From positions 832,001 through 896,000 of the forward strand of contig CAVPPB010000001.1 in NCBI GenBank assembly GCA_963707215.1: a DNA stretch of 64,000 bases. Direction: 5' to 3'. Shown piece after piece: positions 5,367-38,963 of the stretch. The notes beneath the pieces are model-generated. The model saw only the letters and a program-made list of their open reading frames with translations, was not told the origin of the DNA and searched no databases. The position numbers were made by a program, and so were the translations under genes. Origin of the DNA: an uncultured Chloroflexia bacterium. GTDB taxonomy: Bacteria > Chloroflexota > Limnocylindria > Limnocylindrales > CSP1-4. The first letter of the stretch is position 1; every line of letters starts with the position of its first letter.

Positions 5367-6570
5367 GGACCGTGGCTCCTTTCACGTCGGCGGCGGCATC
5401 ATCGGGCACCGCCGCGAACTCGATCCGCAGGGTGTGGTCGTGGAAGCCGGCGCTCCGGGTCGGCGCATCGATCAGGACCCGGGGCAGGATCAGGTTGCGA
5501 CGCCAGCTGCCGACCTGGATGACCAGCTCGTCGGCGAACCGGGTCAGGTGGACCTGCTCCTTCGAGGTGAACGGCAGGTCGAGCTCCAGGATGAATCCGT
5601 CGCCGTCGCGGCGGACGGTGTACGGCCGACCTCGGTAGTAGAAGTCGGTCGGGTCGTCGTCGCCGAAGACGGCGCTCCCGAGCGACCGGAGCATCCGCTC
5701 GCCAAGGACCTCCTCGTCGAAGAACGGCGCGGTCCGGACCGGCACCGGGGCGAAGGCCTCGTCGACGAGCGGGCGGTAGCGCTGCTGGGCCTCCCGCCAG
5801 GCCCCGAAGTAGGCGCCCGCGTCGGGCGGCAGGACCCGGTTGCAGACGACGAGGTCGGTCGGGTAGCCGTAGAGGTGGAAGTAGGTGAAGGAGCGCTGGG
5901 CCTCCTTGATGACCATCTTCTCGAGGTTGAGGACGATCCGGATCGACGTCCGCTCTGGGTCCGAGAGCAGCTCGTGCATGTGCTCGAGCTTGGCGAACAG
6001 CTCCTCGCCGGCGTTGAAGATCTCCTTGCCGGGCATGGGCATCCCGGTCACCCGACCCACGATGGGGCTGGTCAGCTGGGCGATCCGGCGCTGGACCGGG
6101 TAGATCTTCTCCAGCCACCAGCGACCCGCCTCGGGCAGGCTCAACAGCCGCAGGGTCTCGCCGGTCGGGGCTGCGTCGACGACGATGAGGTCGTACGCGC
6201 CGCGGTCGTGGTGCTCGGCGATCCAGAGCAGGCTTGCCAGCTCGTCCATGCCGGGCAGGACGCTCATCTCCTCGGCCACGATGGTGTCGAGCCCGCGCCA
6301 CTGGAGGACGCTGGAGACGTACGACTGGATCGTCCCCCAGTAGGTCTCGATGTTGTGGAAGACCTCGGACTCCTGGCCCCACAGGTTCGGGGCGATCTCG
6401 GTCGGCTCGGGACCGAGCGGGCGGTCGAACGAGTCGGCGAGGCTGTGGGCCGCGTCGGTCGAGAGGACGATCGTGCGGTAGCCGCGCTCGGCGGCGAGGA
6501 GACCGGTGGCCGCAGCCACGCTGGTCTTGCCGACCCCGCCCTTGCCCGTGTAGACGATGATCCGGGTCAC
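5359..6570 (-). CDS. ArsA/Get3-family ATPase with C-terminal HSP20-like domain
   Basis: GKGGVGKTS, STDAAHSLAD, PGMDE, DAAPTGET; C-terminal LELDLPF...ELVIQVGSWRRNLILP. Confidence 0.9.
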   Translation of the reverse strand: MTRIIVYTGKGGVGKTSVAAATGLLAAERGYRTIVLSTDAAHSLADSFDRPLGPEPTEIAPNLWGQESEVFHNIETYWGTIQSYVSSVLQWRGLDTIVAEEMSVLPGMDELASLLWIAEHHDRGAYDLIVVDAAPTGETLRLLSLPEAGRWWLEKIYPVQRRIAQLTSPIVGRVTGMPMPGKEIFNAGEELFAKLEHMHELLSDPERTSIRIVLNLEKMVIKEAQRSFTYFHLYGYPTDLVVCNRVLPPDAGAYFGAWREAQQRYRPLVDEAFAPVPVRTAPFFDEEVLGERMLRSLGSAVFGDDDPTDFYYRGRPYTVRRDGDGFILELDLPFTSKEQVHLTRFADELVIQVGSWRRNLILPRVLIDAPTRSAGFHDHTLRIEFAAVPDDAAADVKGATVHG

Positions 6571-6613
6571 CCCCGAATCCTACGCCCGAGGAGCGGAACG
6601 GGCCTCGGGCGGT

Positions 6614-7294
6614 CTAGCGAGCCTCCTGCCCGGGAGCGGCCGGCTCGCCGCGCAGGTAGCGGTAGACGAGGGCGCCGAGCGCGGCCCCAACGACCGGAGC
6701 CGCGAGGTAGATCCAGAGACCCGTGAGATCCCCCTCGACGAGCGCCGGGCCGAGCGACCGGGCGGGGTTCATGGACGCACCGCTGATGGGACCGCCGACG
6801 AGCGCGCCGAGCGCCACGGTGCCCCCGACGGCCAGGGCGGCAGCCTCGCCGACTGCCCGGGTGTCGGTCGCGACGGAGGTGATGACGAGCATGAGGGTGA
6901 AGCCGAGGACCGCCTCCCAGGCGAGAGCCTGGACGTCCGGGCCTGCCGGCCGGGTCACGCCGAGCGTGACGTCGCCGAGGGTGAGCCGCAGGACGAGGGC
7001 TCCCGCCACGGCGCCGAGCGACTGGGCCAGCGCGTAGGTCGCGACGCGGGGCCACGGGAAGTGCCGGCCGACGGCGAAGCCGATCGAGACCGCCGGGTTG
7101 AAGTGCGCGCCGGAGACATGGCCCAGGGCGTAGATCATCACGGCCACGACGAGGCCGAAGACCAGCGCCACACCACCGCTCTCGAGGCTGCCCACGGCGA
7201 TCGCGCCGCAGCCGAAGAGGACGAGTGCGAACGTCCCGATGACCTCCGCCAGGTGGGCTCGCACGATGGGTCGGGGATCGGCGGCGCTGGTCAG
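6614..7294 (-). CDS. MIP/aquaporin-family channel (possible arsenite channel); start uncertain (7294 or 7264)
   Basis: AEVIGTFALV, SGAHFNPAV and GASMNPARS (two NPA boxes); directly downstream of arsC. Confidence 0.9.
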   Translation of the reverse strand: MTSAADPRPIVRAHLAEVIGTFALVLFGCGAIAVGSLESGGVALVFGLVVAVMIYALGHVSGAHFNPAVSIGFAVGRHFPWPRVATYALAQSLGAVAGALVLRLTLGDVTLGVTRPAGPDVQALAWEAVLGFTLMLVITSVATDTRAVGEAAALAVGGTVALGALVGGPISGASMNPARSLGPALVEGDLTGLWIYLAAPVVGAALGALVYRYLRGEPAAPGQEAR

Positions 7295-30167: not shown

Positions 30168-30632
30168 GTGCACGGGGGCGCCGAATTGGCGGCCGATCCG
30201 ATCTCGGTCCTGCTGCTCTACGTCAACCCGCTTCTCGGCGAGGGGCTCGAGCGCCTGCTGACCGCCGAGCCGCGACTGTCGGTGACGGCACTCCACCTGG
30301 CCTGCTCCGCTCCTCTCGCGCCGATCGCCGATCAGGATGCCGACGTGGTCATCTTCGAGGAGGGTGGTCCGCTGGGCCTCGAGCAGCTCCTCGAGCGGAC
30401 CCGTGCTCCGATCGTCATCGCGGTCAGCCTCCACACGGGCGACGTCTGGACGCTTCGGCGCGACGACCTGCGCAAGCGTTCCGGTGATGTCGTCGACGAG
30501 ATCGTGGCGACCTGCCTGGGCCGCGCCGACGCCGCGGCCCGCGCCGTTCGGGGCGGGCGCCGACGACCGGTCGCGATCGAGGTGGCCGATGACCAGCGGA
30601 CGCCGACCCCCCGAGCGTATCGCCCCGCCTGA
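30168..30632 (+). CDS. Hypothetical protein, degenerate receiver-like domain
   Basis: SVLLLYVNPLLGEGLERLL...ADVVIFEE; lacks the canonical Asp pattern and has no output domain. Confidence 0.5.
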   Translation: MHGGAELAADPISVLLLYVNPLLGEGLERLLTAEPRLSVTALHLACSAPLAPIADQDADVVIFEEGGPLGLEQLLERTRAPIVIAVSLHTGDVWTLRRDDLRKRSGDVVDEIVATCLGRADAAARAVRGGRRRPVAIEVADDQRTPTPRAYRPA

Positions 30633-30656
30633 GCCGCCTCGGTATCCTTAGGTCCG

Positions 30657-31139
30657 ATGAGCCTTCCTTCCGGCCACCGCATGCCCCGCCGCCGCGCGCT
30701 CCTCGTCATCGGATCGAGCGTCGCCGCCATCGGCGCCACTCCCCTCGCCCTGGCCGGCTGCGAGCCGCCGGTGCCGGTGGACACGACGTTCGAGCTCGAC
30801 CCGGCAAGCCTGCCCGTGGGCGAACCGACGCTCATCGGCTTCGAGTTCGAGAAGCCCGACGGGTCGATCGGCCAGGGCTCGGCCTGGTTCCTGCGCAGCG
30901 ACGACGACGCGCTCGTTGCCTACGACCCGCGCTGCACCCACCAGGCTTGCGAGTACGCCTGGGAGCCGGCCCAGGCGCAGTTCACCTGCGTCTGCCACGA
31001 GGCCGCCTTCTCCCTGGACGGCGAGGTCTTGTTCGGCCCGCCGCCACGGCCGCTGGCTCGGTTCCCGATGGTCGTCAGCGGGACGTCGGTGACCCTCACG
31101 GTCCCCTCGAACCTGCAGGCGCCCAAGACCGAAGGCTGA
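30657..31139 (+). CDS. Second Rieske [2Fe-2S] protein (probable Tat lipoprotein)
   Basis: RRRALL plus LAGC; CTHQAC, CVCH, GPPPRPL. Confidence 0.85.
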   Translation: MSLPSGHRMPRRRALLVIGSSVAAIGATPLALAGCEPPVPVDTTFELDPASLPVGEPTLIGFEFEKPDGSIGQGSAWFLRSDDDALVAYDPRCTHQACEYAWEPAQAQFTCVCHEAAFSLDGEVLFGPPPRPLARFPMVVSGTSVTLTVPSNLQAPKTEG

Positions 31140-31369
31140 GCGAGCGGTTGCTGGGAACCCGGTCGCTCGGCGGCTGCCCACCGCGGGGTGCGACCGCCCA
31201 GGACCCTTGGCCCTGATCGGCTGATATACCCCCGGTGCGTGGACGCACCGCCGCCTGTGCCGAACATGTATCGCCCGGCGGATGGGTCCACGGGACGCTC
31301 CGCGCGACGATATCCACGGTCGACCGTCCCCGACGTGGCCGACCGTGTCCGCTAGTGGGGTGAAAACGA

Positions 31370-32365
31370 ATGTTCCGGGTCACGTCCCTGACCGCGATGT
31401 CGGACCGGCAGCTCGACCGCTGGATCAAGCGGATCGCGGCGCTGGCGCTGATCGCGCTCGTGGCGTTCGTGGCGTTCTACGTCTTCGACCGCTACCGCGA
31501 TCCCGGCCCGACGATGGTCGACCGCAACATCATCGCCCTCGAGGAAGTCGTCCGGGCCGACCCGGCCGACATCACCTCGCGGGGCCAGCTCGCCGACCTC
31601 TACACGGCCGCCGGCCGCTACGAGGATGCGATCGCCCAGTACGGGGCGATCCTCGAGACCGGCAAGGAGACCGAGCTGGCCCACTTCGGGCGGGCCAAGG
31701 CCTACCAGGCCAGCGGGCAGCTCGATGCCGCGGCCGCGGACTTCGAGGTGGTCGTGGGCATCGCCAAGGAAGGCGAGATGGCCCACGTCGACCCGATCCT
31801 GAATGCCGCCTACTTCGGTCTCGGAGCGATCGCCCTCGAGCAGGGCCGCCCGGACGACGCGGTCACCCACCTCACGGCGGCGGTCAACATCAAGCGGGCT
31901 GACGCCGACTCGTGGAACCTCCTCGGGGCGGCCCTGGTCGACGTCGGCGAGCCCGCCAAGGCCATCGAGGCCCTCCAGAAGGCCGTCGCCTTCGTGCCGC
32001 TCGGGTGGGTCGAGCCATACGTGACGATGGCCGAGGCCTACACCGCGCTCGGCCAGCCGGCCCGGGCGGAGTGGGCCAACGCGATGGCCGATCTCTCCGC
32101 CGGCAAGCCCGACGAGGCGAGGACCCGGCTCCTCGCCATCACCGAGGGCGAGACGGCCCTCGACGCCGCCATCGGCCTGGCGCTCATCGCCGAGACCGAG
32201 GGCGATGGGCCAGCGGCGGTGGAGTGGTACACGAAGGCGCTGGCGATCGATCCCGAGAACGCGGCCGCCCGGCTCGGTCTCGGCAGGGTCAGCGACCCAG
32301 CCGCCAGCGCGGCTCCACTGCCCGAGCTGCCCGAGCCCGGTGCCGTGGAAGGCGGCCAGGGCTGA
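31370..32365 (+). CDS. Membrane-anchored TPR protein (start may be 31397)
   Basis: N-terminal TM then multiple TPRs (LADLY..AGRYEDA, AYFGLGAIA, WNLLGAAL, ALAIDPENAAA). Confidence 0.85.
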   Translation: MFRVTSLTAMSDRQLDRWIKRIAALALIALVAFVAFYVFDRYRDPGPTMVDRNIIALEEVVRADPADITSRGQLADLYTAAGRYEDAIAQYGAILETGKETELAHFGRAKAYQASGQLDAAAADFEVVVGIAKEGEMAHVDPILNAAYFGLGAIALEQGRPDDAVTHLTAAVNIKRADADSWNLLGAALVDVGEPAKAIEALQKAVAFVPLGWVEPYVTMAEAYTALGQPARAEWANAMADLSAGKPDEARTRLLAITEGETALDAAIGLALIAETEGDGPAAVEWYTKALAIDPENAAARLGLGRVSDPAASAAPLPELPEPGAVEGGQG

Positions 32366-33432
32366 TGACGACCCCGCAGATGACGGCCGACACCGTCCCG
32401 CCGGCGGCTGACACCGCCCCCGACGCCCCCACCCCGACCGAGCTCTCCCCGGAAGAGGAGCAGAAGCGGCGACGGCGCAAGGCCATCATCTTCTTCCTGC
32501 TCCTCGGCTTCCTGGGGATCCTCCTGCTCCTGCTGCTCTGGTACCTGCTGTTCCGGCAGCCGCTGCCGATCGTCCCGCCGATCCCGGAGGCTCAGCTGCC
32601 CGGCTATGCGACCAGCGTCTACGGGGCCTCCAGCCCCGCCGGTGTCGCGGTGACGCCGGCCGGCGACCGCATCTACGTCACCGAGACCGGCGGCGACTAC
32701 GGGATCAAGATCTTCGACGGCGGCGGCGTCCAGGTCGGGGCCATGGAGTTCCCGGCCGACACGGGTACCGGGCACGTCCCGGTGTACATCGCGATCGACC
32801 CGCTCTCCAGCGAGGTGTACGTCTCCGATCGGCCGACCGGCTCGATCCACATCTTCGACCGCGACGGGAAGTACCAGCGCCAGTTCAACCCCGGCGAGGA
32901 GATCCCCGGCTGGCAGCCGCTCGGCCTGGCGTTCGACCCGAACGGCAACCTCTATGTCACCGACCTGGGTGGCGCGACCCAGAAGGTCCTGGTCTTCGAT
33001 CGCACCGGCACGGTCGTCCGGACCATCGGAGCCGACGCGGGCCTGGACTTCCCCAACGGGGTGGCCGTTGATGACGCAGGCCTGGTCTACGTCACCGACA
33101 GCAACAACGGCCGGCTGCTCATCTTCGGCCCCGATGGCTCGATCTCGGGCCAGATCGGCCGCGGCGCCGGCGCCGGCAATCTCGGGCTTCCCCGCGGCCT
33201 GGCCATCGATGGCCAGGGTCGCGTCTTCGTCGTCGACACCAGCGGGAACGGCGTCTTGCTGTACCGGACGCTGGGCGAGGACGAGCGGCGACCCGAATAC
33301 GTGGGGTTCTTCGGCGGTCACGGGCTCTCCGACGGCCAGTTCGCGTTCCCGATGGGCGCGGCCGTCGACGACCGGGGCCGCGTCTATGTGGCCGACACGG
33401 CCAACGGCCGTGTCCAAGTCTGGAGCTACTAG
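32365..33432 (+). CDS. Membrane-anchored NHL-repeat (6-bladed beta-propeller) protein
   Basis: TM helix then PAGVAV, PLGLAFD, FPNGVAVD, LPRGLAID, FPMGAAVD...YVADTANGRVQ. Confidence 0.9.
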   Translation: MTTPQMTADTVPPAADTAPDAPTPTELSPEEEQKRRRRKAIIFFLLLGFLGILLLLLLWYLLFRQPLPIVPPIPEAQLPGYATSVYGASSPAGVAVTPAGDRIYVTETGGDYGIKIFDGGGVQVGAMEFPADTGTGHVPVYIAIDPLSSEVYVSDRPTGSIHIFDRDGKYQRQFNPGEEIPGWQPLGLAFDPNGNLYVTDLGGATQKVLVFDRTGTVVRTIGADAGLDFPNGVAVDDAGLVYVTDSNNGRLLIFGPDGSISGQIGRGAGAGNLGLPRGLAIDGQGRVFVVDTSGNGVLLYRTLGEDERRPEYVGFFGGHGLSDGQFAFPMGAAVDDRGRVYVADTANGRVQVWSY

Positions 33433-33512
33433 CTCATGTGTAGAGAGGGAGGTGCGACCCGTCCAACGTCGATCCGCCGGCTGGGCCGGCTACCCACACA
33501 GCACACGACAGA

Positions 33513-33880
33513 GAGAAAGGAGGTAAGGACAGTGAAACGCCTGGCGCTCCTGATGACAGGCGGCGCCATCTGGCTGTTCCTTGCCGCACTCCCTGCCCTC
33601 GCTGACGGCGGACCCCACGTCTCGACGATCAACAACGGGTCGCTGGGGATCAACGCCGACAGCTGTGCCGGGTGCCACCGTGCGCACACGGCACAGGGTC
33701 CATTCCTCATCAATGCCGCCGACGAGGAGGCCCTCTGCCTGACGTGCCACGGCGCGGCCGGCACGGGCTCGACCGTCGACGTCATGACCGGCGTCCAGTA
33801 CACCCTGGGCGGAGACGGCCTCCGCGGTGGTGCCATCCTTGGTGCTGCCCGCAACGGCGGCTTCGACCAGGCCCGGATCG
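33513..33880 (+). repeat. 368-bp direct repeat, copy 1 (RBS plus 5' part of hexaheme cytochrome A)
   Basis: Matches 34838-35205. I see only two synonymous differences (cctgcc vs cccgct). Confidence 0.93.
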
Positions 33881-34789
33881 ACAGCTCGAACGCGACCCGC
33901 TCGTCGTACCTGCGGAATGCGACCGCCGTGTCGCAGCACCCGAAGGTCAGCGTGCTGGGCGCGGGCGAGGACGTCACCTCCGCGCACCTCGAGCCTGCCC
34001 GACAACGGCCTGACGATGCCGGGCATCGCCTGGGGCAACGGTGACTTCACGGCTGCGGTGGATCCGGGGCCGGCCTTCGAACTGAGCTGCGCGTCCTGCC
34101 ACAACCCGCATGGGAACGGGCAGTACCGCATCCTCAACCCGATCCCGAATGGGTCGGGCGCCACCACCGGCGTCGAAGTCGCCGACGCGGCCCTGCCGCC
34201 GGCTGGTGACACGCGCAACTACACGGTCATCCAGGAACTCGATCGCCGACGGCGGCTACGCTCTCTCGCGAGCGACGTCGTGGCCGGTGGCTTCGCCGCC
34301 ACCGACGGCGACTACTTCCGTCGGAACGTGCCGTGGGCACCCGAGATCGTCGACCCGGTCAACTGCGACCCGACGATCTTCCCGCGGCCGGATTGCCCGG
34401 TCGATACGAACAATGATGCACCGAACGGTGACCCCGACTTCAACGTCGCGATCACCGCCTGGTGCAGCCAGTGCCATACCCGGTACCTGGCCGATGGCAA
34501 CACCCCGGTCGCAGGCAACCCCTACGAGACGGACTCCGGTGACGCCATCTTCACGTACCGCCACCCGACGCGCTCGAACCGGACGTGCAACGTCTGCCAC
34601 GTCTCGCACGGCTCGAACGCCACGATGGATGGCACGTTCAGCGTCAACGCGACCTACCCGGATGGGACGGTCTCAGCCAGCAGCCGGCTCCTGAAGGTCG
34701 ACAACCGTGGCACCTGCCAGGCTTGTCACGATCCGACAGGGACCATCACGGCTGGCACGATCATCGGACCACCCGCGGGAGTGCCGTAG
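33532..34789 (+). CDS. Secreted hexaheme cytochrome c, OmcS-like, copy A (indels near 33993 and 34233-34265)
   Basis: AGAAAGGAGGT RBS, Sec signal; CAGCHRAH, CLTCH, LSCASCHNPHG..YRIL, WCSQCH, YRHP, CNVCHVSH, CQACH. Confidence 0.88.
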
Positions 34790-34797
34790 AAGCTCAG

Positions 34798-34829
34798 TCA
34801 CCGGAGGCCCCCTCGGGGGCTTCCGGTGA
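34798..34829 (+). terminator. Strong intergenic stem-loop between the two hexaheme genes (no U-tract; terminator or mRNA stabiliser)
   Basis: TCACCGGAGGCCCC-CTCG-GGGGCTTCCGGTGA, 14-bp stem with one G-U pair. Confidence 0.6.
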
Positions 34830-34837
34830 TCTCAGGC

Positions 34838-35205
34838 GAGAAAGGAGGTAAGGACAGTGAAACGCCTGGCGCTCCTGATGACAGGCGGCGCCATCTGGCT
34901 GTTCCTTGCCGCACTCCCCGCTCTCGCTGACGGCGGACCCCACGTCTCGACGATCAACAACGGGTCGCTGGGGATCAACGCCGACAGCTGTGCCGGGTGC
35001 CACCGTGCGCACACGGCACAGGGTCCATTCCTCATCAATGCCGCCGACGAGGAGGCCCTCTGCCTGACGTGCCACGGCGCGGCCGGCACGGGCTCGACCG
35101 TCGACGTCATGACCGGCGTCCAGTACACCCTGGGCGGAGACGGCCTCCGCGGTGGTGCCATCCTTGGTGCTGCCCGCAACGGCGGCTTCGACCAGGCCCG
35201 GATCG
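34838..35205 (+). repeat. 368-bp direct repeat, copy 2 (RBS plus 5' part of hexaheme cytochrome B)
   Basis: Matches 33513-33880. Confidence 0.93.
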
Positions 35206-36045
35206 GCTCGAGTGAGGTCTACCGGATCTCGACCGCGAGCGGCTCCCTTCGGACGAAGGTGCCGGTCCTGGCGACTCCGGCGGACGTCACGTCGTCCCAC
35301 CTCGAGCTGCCCGACAACGGCCTGACCAATCCTGGGCAACGCCTGGGGCAACGGCCCGGACGGGTCGGGTGCCGGCCGAGCGTCGAGCTGAGCTGCGCGT
35401 CCTGCCACAACCCGCATGGGAACGGGCAGTACCGCATCCTCAACCCGATCCCGGACCCCGCCGCGACGGCCGCCGGGGCCTTCTACCCGGTCGCGGCGCC
35501 GGGCGCTCTGGTCACCGACGCCGCGCTGCCACCGGCACGGCGACACCCGCAACTACACGGTCATCCAGACCGTCGCGAGCGCGCCGACCTTGCTGGCAAG
35601 CGACGTGCCGAGCGTTCCCGGCTACACGCCGACGGCGGGAGACTACTTCCACCGTGGCGTGCCGTGGAACACGCGGACGAACAACGACGCTCCGAACGGG
35701 CTGACCAGCTTCAACAGCGAGATCACTGCGTGGTGCAGCGCCTGCCACACGCGGTACTACTCGGAGGACGACGGGACCAACCCGACCCCGAACACCATCT
35801 TCAAGTACCAGCACAACACCCAGAGCAACCGGGCCTGCACGACCTGCCACGTGTCCCACGGCTCGAACGCCCAGATGGACGGCACCTACTCGTCGACGTA
35901 CACCTACCCGGATGGGCGGGTGTCGGCGAACAGCCGCCTCCTGAAGATCGACAACCGCGGCACCTGCCAGGCCTGCCATGACCCGACAGGGACCTTCGGC
36001 CCCAGCAACAGCGTGGGCCCGGTCCCGGTGCCGCTCGTCCCGTAA
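34857..36045 (+). CDS. Secreted hexaheme cytochrome c, OmcS-like, copy B (indels near 35335-35375 and 35537)
   Basis: CAGCHRAH, CLTCH, LSCASCHNPHG..YRIL, WCSACH, YQH, CTTCHVSH, CQACH. Confidence 0.88.
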
Positions 36046-36164
36046 TCCGAACCCCACTCGGCCCACCCCGGACCGAGCAAGAGGATCGGCTCACCGATCG
36101 TGGTGGCCGTGGCCGAGACCGCGGCCACCACGACGAACCAGATGAAAGTCGAGCGTCCTGACGG

Positions 36165-38963
36165 ATGAAGCGCCCACCGGCGCACCGAACCGGCCCAGCT
36201 GCCGCCGCGATCCTCCTGGTCGCGTCGCTGCTGCTGTCCGTCACCCCGGTCGTGCCCCGGGTCGGCGCCATCGACCCGACCCCGGTGCCGAGCGCGAGCG
36301 AGCCTGCTTCGCCGACGCCAGCACCCGCCCCGACCCCCACCGATCCGCCGTCCCCCGGCCCCTCCCCGACACCGTCGCCCACGCCGTCGCCCGACCCGAG
36401 CTCGAGCCCGGTTCCGACGCCGCCGTCGTCGCCGTCACCAGCCCCCACGTCGCCTCCGTCGGCGAGCCCCTCGCCGACGCCGAGCCCGGTTCCGAGCGAC
36501 CCCCCGTCGCCGCAGCCGTCGCCGACGCCCAAGCCATCGCCGAGCCCGCTTCCACTCGATGCGGTCGTGCTCCAGTCGGCGGATGCCCCTGAGGTCGGGG
36601 CTCGCCGCGTGGACCCCGGCGCGCTCGTCGCCATCACCCTCACGATCCTCGCCACGGGTCCGGTCACCGACGCCGAGCTCGTCGAGCAGGTGCCCATCGG
36701 CTGGCTCGTCGTCGATGCGGCCGGCGGCACCTACGATCTGGCCGAGCGGTCGGTCCGCTGGTCCGTGTCGAGCCTGGTGGCCGGCAGTACCTGGGAGCGA
36801 AGGGTCGTCGTTCGAGCGCCATCGCTCGGAGCCGGCGACCCGGTGCTCGATGCTCGCTTCGAGGCGAAGCTCGTCGGGCGAAGTGATCGGGTCCTCGCCG
36901 CGCCGCTCGACCTGCTCGTCGCGCCGGAGCTCGTCATCGCCGAGACCACGTTCGCCACCATCGACGACCTGAGCCAGGTCCCGACCTACCTCACCCCCGG
37001 CGAGGCCCTTGACGCGGTCGCAGCCTTCGACCGGATCCGGCTCCGATTCCAGGTCCGCAACCCTGATTCCATCCCCGTCACGATCGTCCCCGACCTCGAG
37101 TACCGGGCCGTAGGTGACGCTCGCTTCGTCGCCTTGCCGGCCGGCGACCCGGCGCGTGGGGTCCCCTTCTACCTGGCGACCGAGTGGCGACCGGCTGGCA
37201 AGGGGAAGACCGGCACGGTCGTAGGTCCGCCCACGGAACCCATCCCGCCTGGCGACCTCAAGGCCGACGTCAAGGACGACCCGTCCCAGCGACCTTCCCA
37301 GGGGCGCCGGTTCATGGGCACGGACCCGGAGGCCGAGGTCATCGTGCCGGCGAACAGCTACACGGAGATCGAGTTCACCCTTCGGGCTTCGATCGACGCC
37401 CCGTACGGGCGCTCGTTCGAGCTTCGGCTGGTCGATGACGGCCGACCGGTGGCGGCGGCCGTCATCGCCTCGCTCGCGACCGGCCCGAGGCCGCCGCTCG
37501 TGCTGACGCCCGGTCAGCGCAACGGCCTGGATGTCGGGGCGCCGGTCGACGCCGGGGCCGCGCCGGCGTCGCTGTCGCCGACCGCTGCTCGGCAGAGCGG
37601 CGTCGACCACGCCCTGCTGCCGCCCGACCGCATCGTCGACGCACGGAGTGCGGTCGCGACCGGGCTGCCGCGCTACCGACTCGCGATCGCCCAGCTCACC
37701 GAGCCCGATGCCGCGGGACCTCTCGCAGCCCCCTTCGATTCGCCCCACGTCCCGGATACGTCCCTGGTGACCGACACCTGCGCCCGATGCCACAGCGCAC
37801 ACACCGGACAGGGACCCATGCTGCTGCCCGACCCGAACCCCCAGAGCTCCCTCTGCCTGTCATGCCACGACGGGAGCGGCTCGGACATCGACGTGGCCGG
37901 GCGGTACGCCGACCAGGACGTGCCCGCGAACGACGAGGCCACTCGGTCCACCTACCGCCACGACGCGCTGGCGCCGTCGGTCCACACGCTGGCCGGCGAC
38001 GACGAGTTCGGCGGGCTCCTCGAGCGCCACAGCGAGTGCGCCGACTGCCACAACCCGCACAACTCGGTGGCGACCGATGCGACGCAGACGACGACCGGCT
38101 GGACGGTGTCCGGCCGCCAGGCCGCCCTCTCCGGGGTCGCCGTGACCAACGGCCCGGCGGGGACCGCCCCCACATACGCCTTCCTGGACGGGAGCGCGAA
38201 TGCCCAGCCGACCCGCGAATACGAGATCTGCCTCAAGTGCCACTCCGGCTACACCGTCCTGCCCTCGAACGTCGGCCAGCCGCCGTCCCGGTACGCCCTG
38301 GACAAAGGCCTCGAGCTCAACCCCGGCAACGCCTCCTACCACCCGGTCGAGGCCGCGGGCACCAACCAGACGGCAGCCATGGCCAACGGGCTGGCCGGCA
38401 CCTCGCCCTACAAGCTCTGGGACTTCACGACGGCAGGGACGGTCCGCTGCGTCAACTGCCACGCCGATCCGGCGGTCCTGGACCCGGACCAGCCGCCGAC
38501 AGCCGGCAGCGCCCTGGCCCCGCACGTGAGCCAGAACCGGGGGCTCCTGCTCCAGCCATACCGCGACAGATCGCTCAAGCCCGTCGGCGAGCCGTATTCG
38601 GCCGCGGACTTCGCTCTCTGCTACGTCTGTCACTCGGAGGCGCCGTACCTGAACATCAGGACGGGGGCCACGGCGTTCGACTTCCACGCCCTGCACGTTT
38701 CGGACCTGCCGGGGGGCAGCGGCGGGCTGGACATCGACACGCCCGGCGCCGGGCAGGGCTACGCGGTCTGCGCCGAGTGCCACTTCCGCCTCCATTCGAC
38801 CGCCCAGGCCGTCAACGATGGCGACCGGGACAACAGCCGACTGGTGAACTTCGCCCCCAATGTCGTGCCGAACAACGGGGTGCTTGAGTGGCAGAAGGTC
38901 GGCGCGGGCGGGACCTGCACGCTGACCTGCCACGGCGAGCCTCACCGGAACGCCGACTACTAG
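36165..38963 (+). CDS. Large secreted multidomain cytochrome: signal, Pro/Ser/Thr linker, beta-sandwich-like domains, octaheme domain
   Basis: [38 protein letters not shown] plus atypical CTLTCH. Confidence 0.88.
36275..36555 (+). repeat. Low-complexity PSP/PTP linker-coding region
   Basis: About 90 aa of repeated PSPTP/PPSP units. Confidence 0.75.

Follow-up and report, generated by a model that had tools for sequence, protein, structure and literature searches.

The window analysed here is a stretch of 64,000 nucleotides from an uncultured Chloroflexia bacterium of the Limnocylindrales (CSP1-4), taken from a genome assembly of 3.26 Mb in 5 contigs that is 84.8% complete. It contains two adjacent genes on the same strand (+), here called A and B, which encode secreted c-type cytochromes with six CXXCH haem-binding motifs apiece. 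The genes are nearly identical in two blocks, the longer of which covers the 5' end, and strongly diverged in the remainder. Gene conversion between A and B is well supported by the sequences as the origin of these blocks. The full explanation favoured here combines old tandem paralogues, an A-to-B conversion of a predicted docking head and artefactual frame breaks in the assembly, and we consider it, taken as a whole, moderately probable. The encoded proteins distantly resemble OmcS, the filament cytochrome of Geobacter sulfurreducens, and the converted tracts coincide with one side of a predicted interface.

Identical blocks in a diverged gene pair

A and B were compared using a repeat finder and a MAFFT alignment, and the proportions of synonymous (pS) and nonsynonymous (pN) differences were calculated by the method of Nei and Gojobori. 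The parts of the two genes are as follows (ORF, open reading frame; RBS, ribosome-binding site).

33513-33880, + strand: block 1 of copy A, with the RBS, GTG start at 33532, signal peptide, mature N-terminus ADGGPH, haem 1 (CAGCHRAH) and haem 2 (CLTCH)
33532-34789, + strand: gene A, hexahaem cytochrome, in two frames in the assembly (ORFs 33436-34044 and 33827-34789)
33881-34081, + strand: unconverted island of copy A between the identical blocks, a variable loop (model residues ~95-150)
34082-34147, + strand: block 2 of copy A, haem 3 (CASCHNPHGNGQYRILNPIP), 66/66 identical to 35388-35453
34346-34405, + strand: C-x9-C loop insertion, in A only (60-nt gap in B)
34838-35205, + strand: block 1 of copy B, with A-type RBS and leader letters
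34857-36045, + strand: gene B, hexahaem cytochrome, GTG start at 34857 (ORFs 34857-35981 and 35416-36045)
35388-35453, + strand: block 2 of copy B, identical to block 2 of A

A preliminary description, made from the letters alone, had reported a 368-bp block with only two synonymous differences, a 66-bp identical block at haem 3, strongly diverged loops between and after the blocks, and an extra C-x9-C insertion in copy A. Its coordinates and counts are right, and the diverged loops and the insertion were recovered as well. In block 1 (33513-33880 versus 34838-35205, 368 bp), the two mismatches are at 33594 (T/C) and 33597 (C/T), both at synonymous third codon positions in the signal peptide (CCT/CCC, Pro; GCC/GCT, Ala). 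The block begins 19 nt 5' of the GTG starts and spans the GGAGG RBS, the signal peptide, CAGCH of haem 1 and CLTCH of haem 2. Block 2 (SCASCHNPHGNGQYRILNPIP, haem 3) is without mismatch over its 66 bp. The 60-nt insertion of A encodes C-DPTIFPRPD-C, and a C-x10-C loop is present at the same site in the A-type orthologue of G018. This and the other relatives named below are Chloroflexota metagenome-assembled genomes, mostly labelled Limnocylindrales or Limnocylindria.

The longest exact runs between A and B are 289, 81 and 66 nt, within 1166 aligned columns of 81% identity. In 5000 shuffles of the match and mismatch columns, the longest run was 27 on average, and a run of at least 66 was obtained in one shuffle and one of at least 289 in none. 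Block 1 has a pS of 0.021 and a pN of 0 (116 codons), and both values are 0 in block 2 (22 codons). By contrast, pS is 0.67 and pN 0.41 in the stretch between the blocks (33880-33993 versus 35205-35306, 34 aligned codons), and the C-terminal part has a pS of 0.51 and a pN of 0.25 (163 codons). At the pS of the C-terminal part, two or fewer synonymous differences in ~95 sites have a probability of ~1e-26, and the synonymous sites are homogenised ~25-fold or more relative to the remainder of the pair. Purifying selection was ruled out as the sole cause of the blocks, because it would not account for the homogenisation of synonymous sites. The gene conversion proposed in the preliminary description is supported by this synonymous contrast and by the same signature in other genomes.

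The identity could also be an artefact of assembly or polishing, in which cross-mapped reads gave a homogenised consensus. This is very unlikely, and was weighed using Logan contigs of four public runs (X1, X2, X3 and X5), which cover the locus in patches, the maximum share of its sampled words in a run being 0.19. Contigs of X1 match the window with 0 mismatches over 34575-34731, 34821-35033 and 35124-35274; these contigs run across either edge of block 1 in B and reproduce exactly the edges and the two bases by which B differs from A. The two differences between A and B have survived in the assembly, and two separate assemblies show this pattern too, G018 directly and G002 by implication from its contig breaks. 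Weighing in the other direction are several probable consensus indels at the locus and the lack of a 100% independent read match for A's block 1, for which the best contig (X3, over 33408-33677) has 8 mismatches. A's block is covered by contigs of relatives alone, which are 92-97% alike. A's 33400-34433 is uncovered in the near-identical run X1, and 35280-35373 in all four runs. The independent reads thus upheld B's block at both edges and gave no exact match for A's.

A 252-nt contig of X3 (35453>35538 and 35569>34301) joins the haem-3, GDTRNYTVIQ and GDYF…VPW blocks by much shorter loops. It is a third loop-length variant of the gene in nature, and no evidence of recombination between A and B in the window.

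The direction of the exchange can be read from the leaders. The upstream (a) copies in many relatives have a common leader (…GAGAAAGGAGGTRRGGACAGTG) and a small hairpin, and the RBS of the downstream (b) copies is of another kind in four relatives that lack conversion. Compared with these four relatives, the 37-nt leader of B matches the a-type leaders at 27-28 of 37 positions and the b-type leaders at 19-22. Since B carries an A-type RBS and leader, a conversion from A to B is well supported.

Trees of the two gene parts add a further, suggestive line. In the DNA tree of the N-part, A equals B in the window and the a copy of L025 (the G018 pair) equals its b copy, and the a copies of L026, L027, L029, L030 and L057 form a clade of their own (support 99). 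In the protein tree of the C-part, A groups with the a copy of L025 (98), B with the b copy of L033 (98), and the b copy of L025 with the single gene of G001 (100). The approximately unbiased (AU) test was limited to the C-part, the N-part rows being identical. It weighs against the incongruence, as a clade of A and B in the C-part was not rejected (p 0.41) and p was 0.069 for the two L025 copies of G018. For the window, the incongruence between the trees is thus suggestive and falls short of statistical proof.

The same test result would fit a different history, in which a whole gene was recently duplicated and its 3' variable part then replaced from a diverged allele of another strain, as a cassette import without any homogenisation of the 5' end. 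The X3 contig, with the same conserved blocks and other loop lengths, also agrees with this, as it indicates many loop variants in nature. We consider such an import improbable. The C-parts are positional orthologues, the upstream copy grouping with the upstream copy of G018 and the downstream copy with that of L033 (98 each), and near relatives keep distinct a- and b-type N-parts and leaders, whereas B in the window has an a-type leader.

The preliminary description had also suggested that the repeats allow recombinational swapping or a change in copy number. This fits the single gene of G001 (L022 5038-6303, minus strand; L022/L024), in which an A-type leader, immediately after the NHL gene, precedes a B-type body. 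By its sequence, this gene looks like what an a-b pair would be expected to leave after a deletion between its repeats.

Recurrence in relatives and the predicted interface

A search for related loci gave 71, of which 24 have two full hexahaem copies in tandem. In G018, which belongs to a different genus of the family, the tandem copies have intact ORFs and are identical over 589 bp with 0 mismatches (L020 4422-5010 versus 6141-6729). This tract begins in the middle of the signal peptide and ends, as in the window, at the NPIP boundary that follows haem 3; beyond it the copies diverge. Two contigs of G002 start at one and the same position of the N-terminus (CHRAHTAQ…), which is the expected behaviour of a short-read assembler at a repeat. 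G013 has two diverged copies with the large cytochrome gene between them, and G001, from the genus of the window, has a single copy.

The N-part pS is 0.17 or lower in five of the 24 tandem pairs (L025, which is G018, L033, L052, L053 and L061) and 0.26-0.64 in the other 19. Among these 19 unconverted pairs, N-part pN (0.07-0.35) is below C-part pN (0.27-0.43) in 18, the exception being L031 (0.175 and 0.343, with a pS of 0.26). That 19 of 24 paired genomes lack recent conversion weighs against giving conversion an essential role, and conversion is therefore dispensable for the system to work. Since N-part pN is below C-part pN nearly throughout and low N-part pS is confined to five pairs, the sequences point to two layers, in which the N-terminal module is under strong purifying selection family-wide and conversion is sporadic on top of it.

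The constant N-terminus and variable loops that the preliminary description had seen in A and B are a feature of the whole family. In an alignment of 76 sequences (A2), the best-conserved ten-residue windows are 21-30 (0.94), 161-170 (0.96) and 371-380 (0.93). Insertions cluster after residues 171-180 (up to 96 residues), 251-260 (up to 50), 271-280, 291-310 and 351-360. Longer relatives have whole extra domains in these loops, and the first copy of G013 has an E1_FCCH-like match of 34.2 bits. Loops that accept whole domains are unlikely to be buried, and the variable loops are most likely at the surface, as judged from insertion sites, conservation and the contact list. The burial that the preliminary description had named as contrary evidence is therefore unlikely.

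The inserted domains are repeats of 60-100 residues (motif HG[FYL]xxGDxVxI, with weak E1_FCCH-like Pfam matches) after haem 3 and before haem 5, as in L021 3846-6416 (G013), L018 268-2361 (G002) and L020 4379-5953 (G018). They stretch the longest copies to ~700-860 residues.

A two-copy structure was predicted with ESMFold2 for the G001 orthologue with alignment A2 and without haems. The homodimer score is 0.45, and the best of three controls scored 0.00; among proteins of solved structure, 20 of 30 pairs of one chain reach this mark, compared with 1 of 23 single chains. The dimer runs agree in at least 95% of contacts, with a predicted local distance difference test score (pLDDT) of at least 87 for the partner. 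The predicted interface is asymmetric and head-to-tail, in which residues 9-38 and 162-167 of one copy touch 95-100, 112, 140-141, 289-296, 308-313, 338-348 and 369-392 of the other. In copy 2, the second His of CxxCHxxH (H30) touches 140, 308-313 and 346-348 of copy 1.

According to the preliminary description, conversion keeps the polymerisation interface identical. This idea finds its strongest support in the N-side of the predicted dimer, where A and B agree at all 29 contact residues and each of these falls in one of the two identical blocks, with contacts 162 and 164-167 in block 2. It does not hold for the C-side, to which contacts 95-100, 112 and 140-141 in the unconverted island belong. 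Here 31 of 44 contacts are identical in A and B; of the 193 aligned residues in 95-399 that make no contact, 103 are (Fisher p 0.044). Three points weigh against the polymer model. Since 13 of the 44 predicted C-side contacts differ, mixed A/B polymers are not assured. In addition, the dimer result may lean on the solved OmcS filament, and it was obtained with the G001 orthologue without haems in place of A or B. On this model, it is plausible that the subunits form a head-to-tail polymer like that of OmcS, in which the converted blocks are the predicted head.

The conversion may also be real and functionally neutral, with recombination falling where tandem paralogues resemble each other most and the N-terminal module being kept alike for reasons such as the secretion signal, haem attachment or the core fold and not for polymerisation. 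This is a serious possibility, although we would not bet on it. It agrees with the 19 of 24 pairs that have distinct N-parts (pS 0.26-0.64) and in which the N-part protein is nevertheless better kept than the C-part in 18. The tract boundaries vary, from 368 plus 66 bp in the window to 589 bp in G018, and the tract takes in the RBS and signal peptide, which are outside any mature interface. A neutral conversion fits less well with the finding that all 29 predicted N-side contacts fall in the two blocks, of which the haem-3 block stands apart from the other, or with the stretch between the blocks, which is off the N-side and remained unconverted.

In the favoured explanation, A and B would be old tandem paralogues of a family of secreted six-haem c-type cytochromes of Limnocylindria that is built like OmcS. 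A recent gene conversion would have placed the 5' module of A (RBS, signal peptide, mature N-terminus and haems 1-2) in B. The short tract at haem 3 would have become identical too, and the loop between the tracts and the C-terminal half would have kept their old divergence. Strong purifying selection would keep the module similar in all paralogues and so make conversion possible, and conversion would probably be tolerated or favoured for the same reason. The module would be the head of each subunit in the predicted OmcS-like polymer and would dock onto the C-terminal tail of the following one, with H30 (CxxCHxxH) placed in the haem pocket of the neighbour, as in the predicted dimer. The variable loops would lie, presumably exposed, between the conserved haem-binding blocks and take up whole-domain insertions in relatives, and selection may act on the compatibility of the heads.

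A further and rather speculative extension, which we hold to be doubtful, is that there are two subunit types with one interchangeable, His-donating head. Recurrent conversion and occasional deletion would then keep the heads compatible and mix surface loops and inserted domains in one wire. If true, this would amount to diversification of a conductive polymer by a cassette-like system, in a soil and sediment lineage that is abundant and uncultured. Structures of cytochrome nanowires come from a few cultured organisms only. The locus offers a natural experiment, in which a predicted docking head is kept identical between otherwise old paralogues in some Limnocylindria genomes. It also gives a testable prediction, in a widespread uncultured group, of the residues of the polymer interface and of the existence of mixed filaments.

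Frame breaks and the surrounding locus

Both A and B are frame-broken in the assembly under translation table 11, which the preliminary description does not mention. In A, the N-terminal 154 codons and the remaining 264 codons are in different frames as a result of one extra base near 33990-33994 (GAGC[C]TGCCC / GAGCCTGCCC in A versus GAGCTGCCC in B). A short stretch of A at ~34231-34270 (read as ELDRRRRLRSL) is possibly frame-shifted as well; another frame has a higher GC content at third codon positions (GC3) there. B has three frame changes, +1 near 35327, -1 near 35373 and +1 near 35534-35536, and tblastn with the intact G001 orthologue of the same genus switches frame at these three sites. 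GC3 remains 0.85-1.0 in the shifted frames, and no stop-creating substitutions were seen. The flanking genes for a TPR protein, an NHL protein and a 932-residue cytochrome are unbroken.

Other reads lack the breaks at two sites. Contigs of X2 and X5 (92-94% alike) are without one base at 33990, the break of A, and an X1 contig over 35445-35596 (1 mismatch in 151 nt) is without one base at 35536, the last break of B. Broken copies were also counted among the relatives, with 48 partial matches set aside. They make up 8 of 52 full-length copies in the MFD… records with contig_N contigs and 0 of 48 in other records (Fisher p 0.006), and the eight are a lower bound, since L073 and L085, which have in-frame stops, were unflagged. 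As short-read contigs lack the extra bases at two sites, the breaks are probably assembly errors, that is, consensus errors at a repeated, strain-variable locus. On the other side, the X1 deletion at 35536 comes from a single contig with a depth of 2.2, and the contigs reached neither two of B's three breaks nor the suspected double shift of A.

A and B might instead be true pseudogenes in this strain, with the identical blocks as a relic of conversion before decay. There are at least four frame changes in 2.5 kb versus none in 4.9 kb of the flanking TPR, NHL and 932-residue genes, and the break sites are not long homopolymers, both of which agree with decay. Nevertheless, real pseudogenes are unlikely, given the contigs of three public runs without the extra base at two sites, the high GC3 in shifted frames without stop-creating substitutions, the pN of 0 in block 1, and the confinement of split copies to one assembly class (8/52 versus 0/48). 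Programmed frameshifting was considered as well and set aside, as A and B are broken at different sites, none of them slippery, and the extra bases are missing from related reads. In an automatic annotation of this genome, A and B will probably end up as pseudogenes or fragments. A practical warning follows for contiguous assemblies, where this repeated locus attracts indel errors that make both genes appear dead.

The remaining features of the locus are as follows.

31370-32365, + strand: TPR-repeat protein gene, an intact ORF of 331 residues (Pfam TPR_2, E 2e-23, and many other TPR families), the upstream neighbour in the cluster
32365-33432, + strand: NHL-repeat beta-propeller gene, directly 5' of copy A, in intact frame (Pfam NHL, E 6e-34, 5 stretches)
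33433-33512, + strand: leader of copy A, found in A only by alignment of the upstream regions, with a short GCCGGC-TGG-GCCGGC hairpin at 33476-33490
34792-34837, + strand: strong stem-loop between the stop of A and block 1 of B, without a T-run; B's repeat copy starts directly after it
36165-38963, + strand: gene for a large secreted multihaem cytochrome of 932 residues, an intact ORF with a Pro/Ser/Thr-rich N-terminal linker, the downstream partner in the cluster

The stop of the NHL gene (…VWSY*) adjoins the leader of the A-type copy in the window and in relatives, and the hairpin at 33476-33490 is kept 5' of A-type copies in other genera. The a-type leader is conserved in DNA across genera (GGAGGT…CCGCCGGC-NGG-GCCGGC…GAGAAAGGAGGT), at 33440-33512 in the window, at ~4300-4378 in L020 and before the upstream copies in L024, L026, L027, L030 and L057, and may be a regulatory leader. 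The stem-loop at 34792-34837 has an RNA fold of -35.3 kcal/mol (z -5.0), with none of 200 shuffles equally stable. It was uncalled by a consensus terminator scan and may be a terminator without a U-tract or an mRNA-stability element; relatives carry other hairpins at this place. A consensus promoter and terminator scan of 33300-36300 gave nothing. Rfam over 30500-36500 gave no riboswitch or leader family, and its sole match, to a microRNA family (E 0.045), is a chance match.

The signal peptide of A and B reads MKRLALL…ALA/DGGPH, and Pfam matches generic families only in these proteins (Paired_CXXCH_1 and Cytochrome_C7). The 932-residue cytochrome matches Paired_CXXCH_1, Cytochrome_C7 and MtrC/MtrF II-IV and is kept downstream in G001, G002, G013 and G018. 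It has a paired-CXXCH N-terminal module (CxxCHxxHT.QGP…C.sCH) in common with the hexahaem pair, with a match of E 2e-8 to the N-terminus of A. Also, tblastn matches to query residues ~20-95 recur ~2.5 kb downstream of the pair in ~45 related loci.

Comparison with OmcS and other filament loci

A and B each have six CXXCH motifs, summed over their frame pieces, in a secreted protein of ~400 mature residues. The six motifs are invariant in the 76 relatives. Exactly 12 His are invariant in A2, namely H27, H50, H161, H286, H329 and H379 of the CXXCH motifs and H7, H30, H126, H164, H313 and H332. By this sequence proxy, bis-histidine ligation of all six haems is provided for. OmcS (GSU2504, PDB 6EF8/6NEF) is likewise a hexahaem protein, of 407 residues, and the parts of its structural reports that are drawn on here give it 12 His ligands, one of which comes from the neighbouring subunit (10.1101/492645; PMC9473688). 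The 12 conserved His of the A/B family match these 12 ligands in number (10.1101/492645, same part). A head-to-tail self-association with an N-terminal His in the haem pocket of the neighbour, as predicted here for the family, would be a further likeness to OmcS.

The arrangement of the genes is also similar. OmcS, OmcT (GSU2503) and OscC (GSU2501) are tandem paralogues in one gene cluster (PMC12977616, PMC13194489, both as excerpted); the excerpt of PMC13194489, with reference to Shen et al. 2025, calls this cluster of G. sulfurreducens the osc operon. According to the sections of PMC12977616 available here, omcS-like genes have undergone multiple duplications, with three mutually closest copies in G. 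bemidjiensis, and the functional relation of the paralogues OmcS, OmcT and OmcJ is an open problem. PMC12977616 attributes the copies to duplication and loss, without a single use of the word 'recombination'. No published report of partial gene conversion among OmcS paralogues was found, the sole paper with the terms gene conversion, OmcS and OmcT being unrelated. No description of the A/B family was found in the literature on Limnocylindria and multihaem proteins or, at the level of titles, on OmcS and Chloroflexota.

The A/B family differs from OmcS in several respects. Its sequences have no significant similarity to OmcS (phmmer E 2.2 with one protein and E 0.79 with a seven-sequence profile), which weighs against the comparison. 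Sequence and profile searches of the PDB gave generic haem-motif matches only, and the protein atlas gave Paired_CXXCH_1 clusters only. An AlphaFold2 model of the G001 orthologue (pLDDT 71, predicted template modelling score 0.77, residues 1-39 below 50) gave no match at E ≤0.001 in a Foldseek search of the PDB. The host is a member of the Chloroflexota and not of the Desulfuromonadia. The family has an N-terminal extension with an invariant DGGPH motif, its loops accept large domain insertions, and it is flanked by genes for an NHL propeller, a TPR protein and a multihaem protein of 700-1000 residues. Filament formation is, moreover, a prediction here. The family thus likely works like OmcS, and its membership in the OmcS family is unproven.

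Concerted evolution is known from pilin, flagellin and archaellin loci, in which a constant N-terminal assembly module and a variable surface part occur in multiple copies, with recombination between the copies. The present locus differs from these in having haem-packed cytochromes in two copies, without silent cassettes, and in its sporadic conversion (5/24 pairs), with no evidence for programmed variation. It has in common with them a constant N-terminal part, predicted here to serve assembly, that is joined to variable parts in multiple copies, and recombination between those copies.

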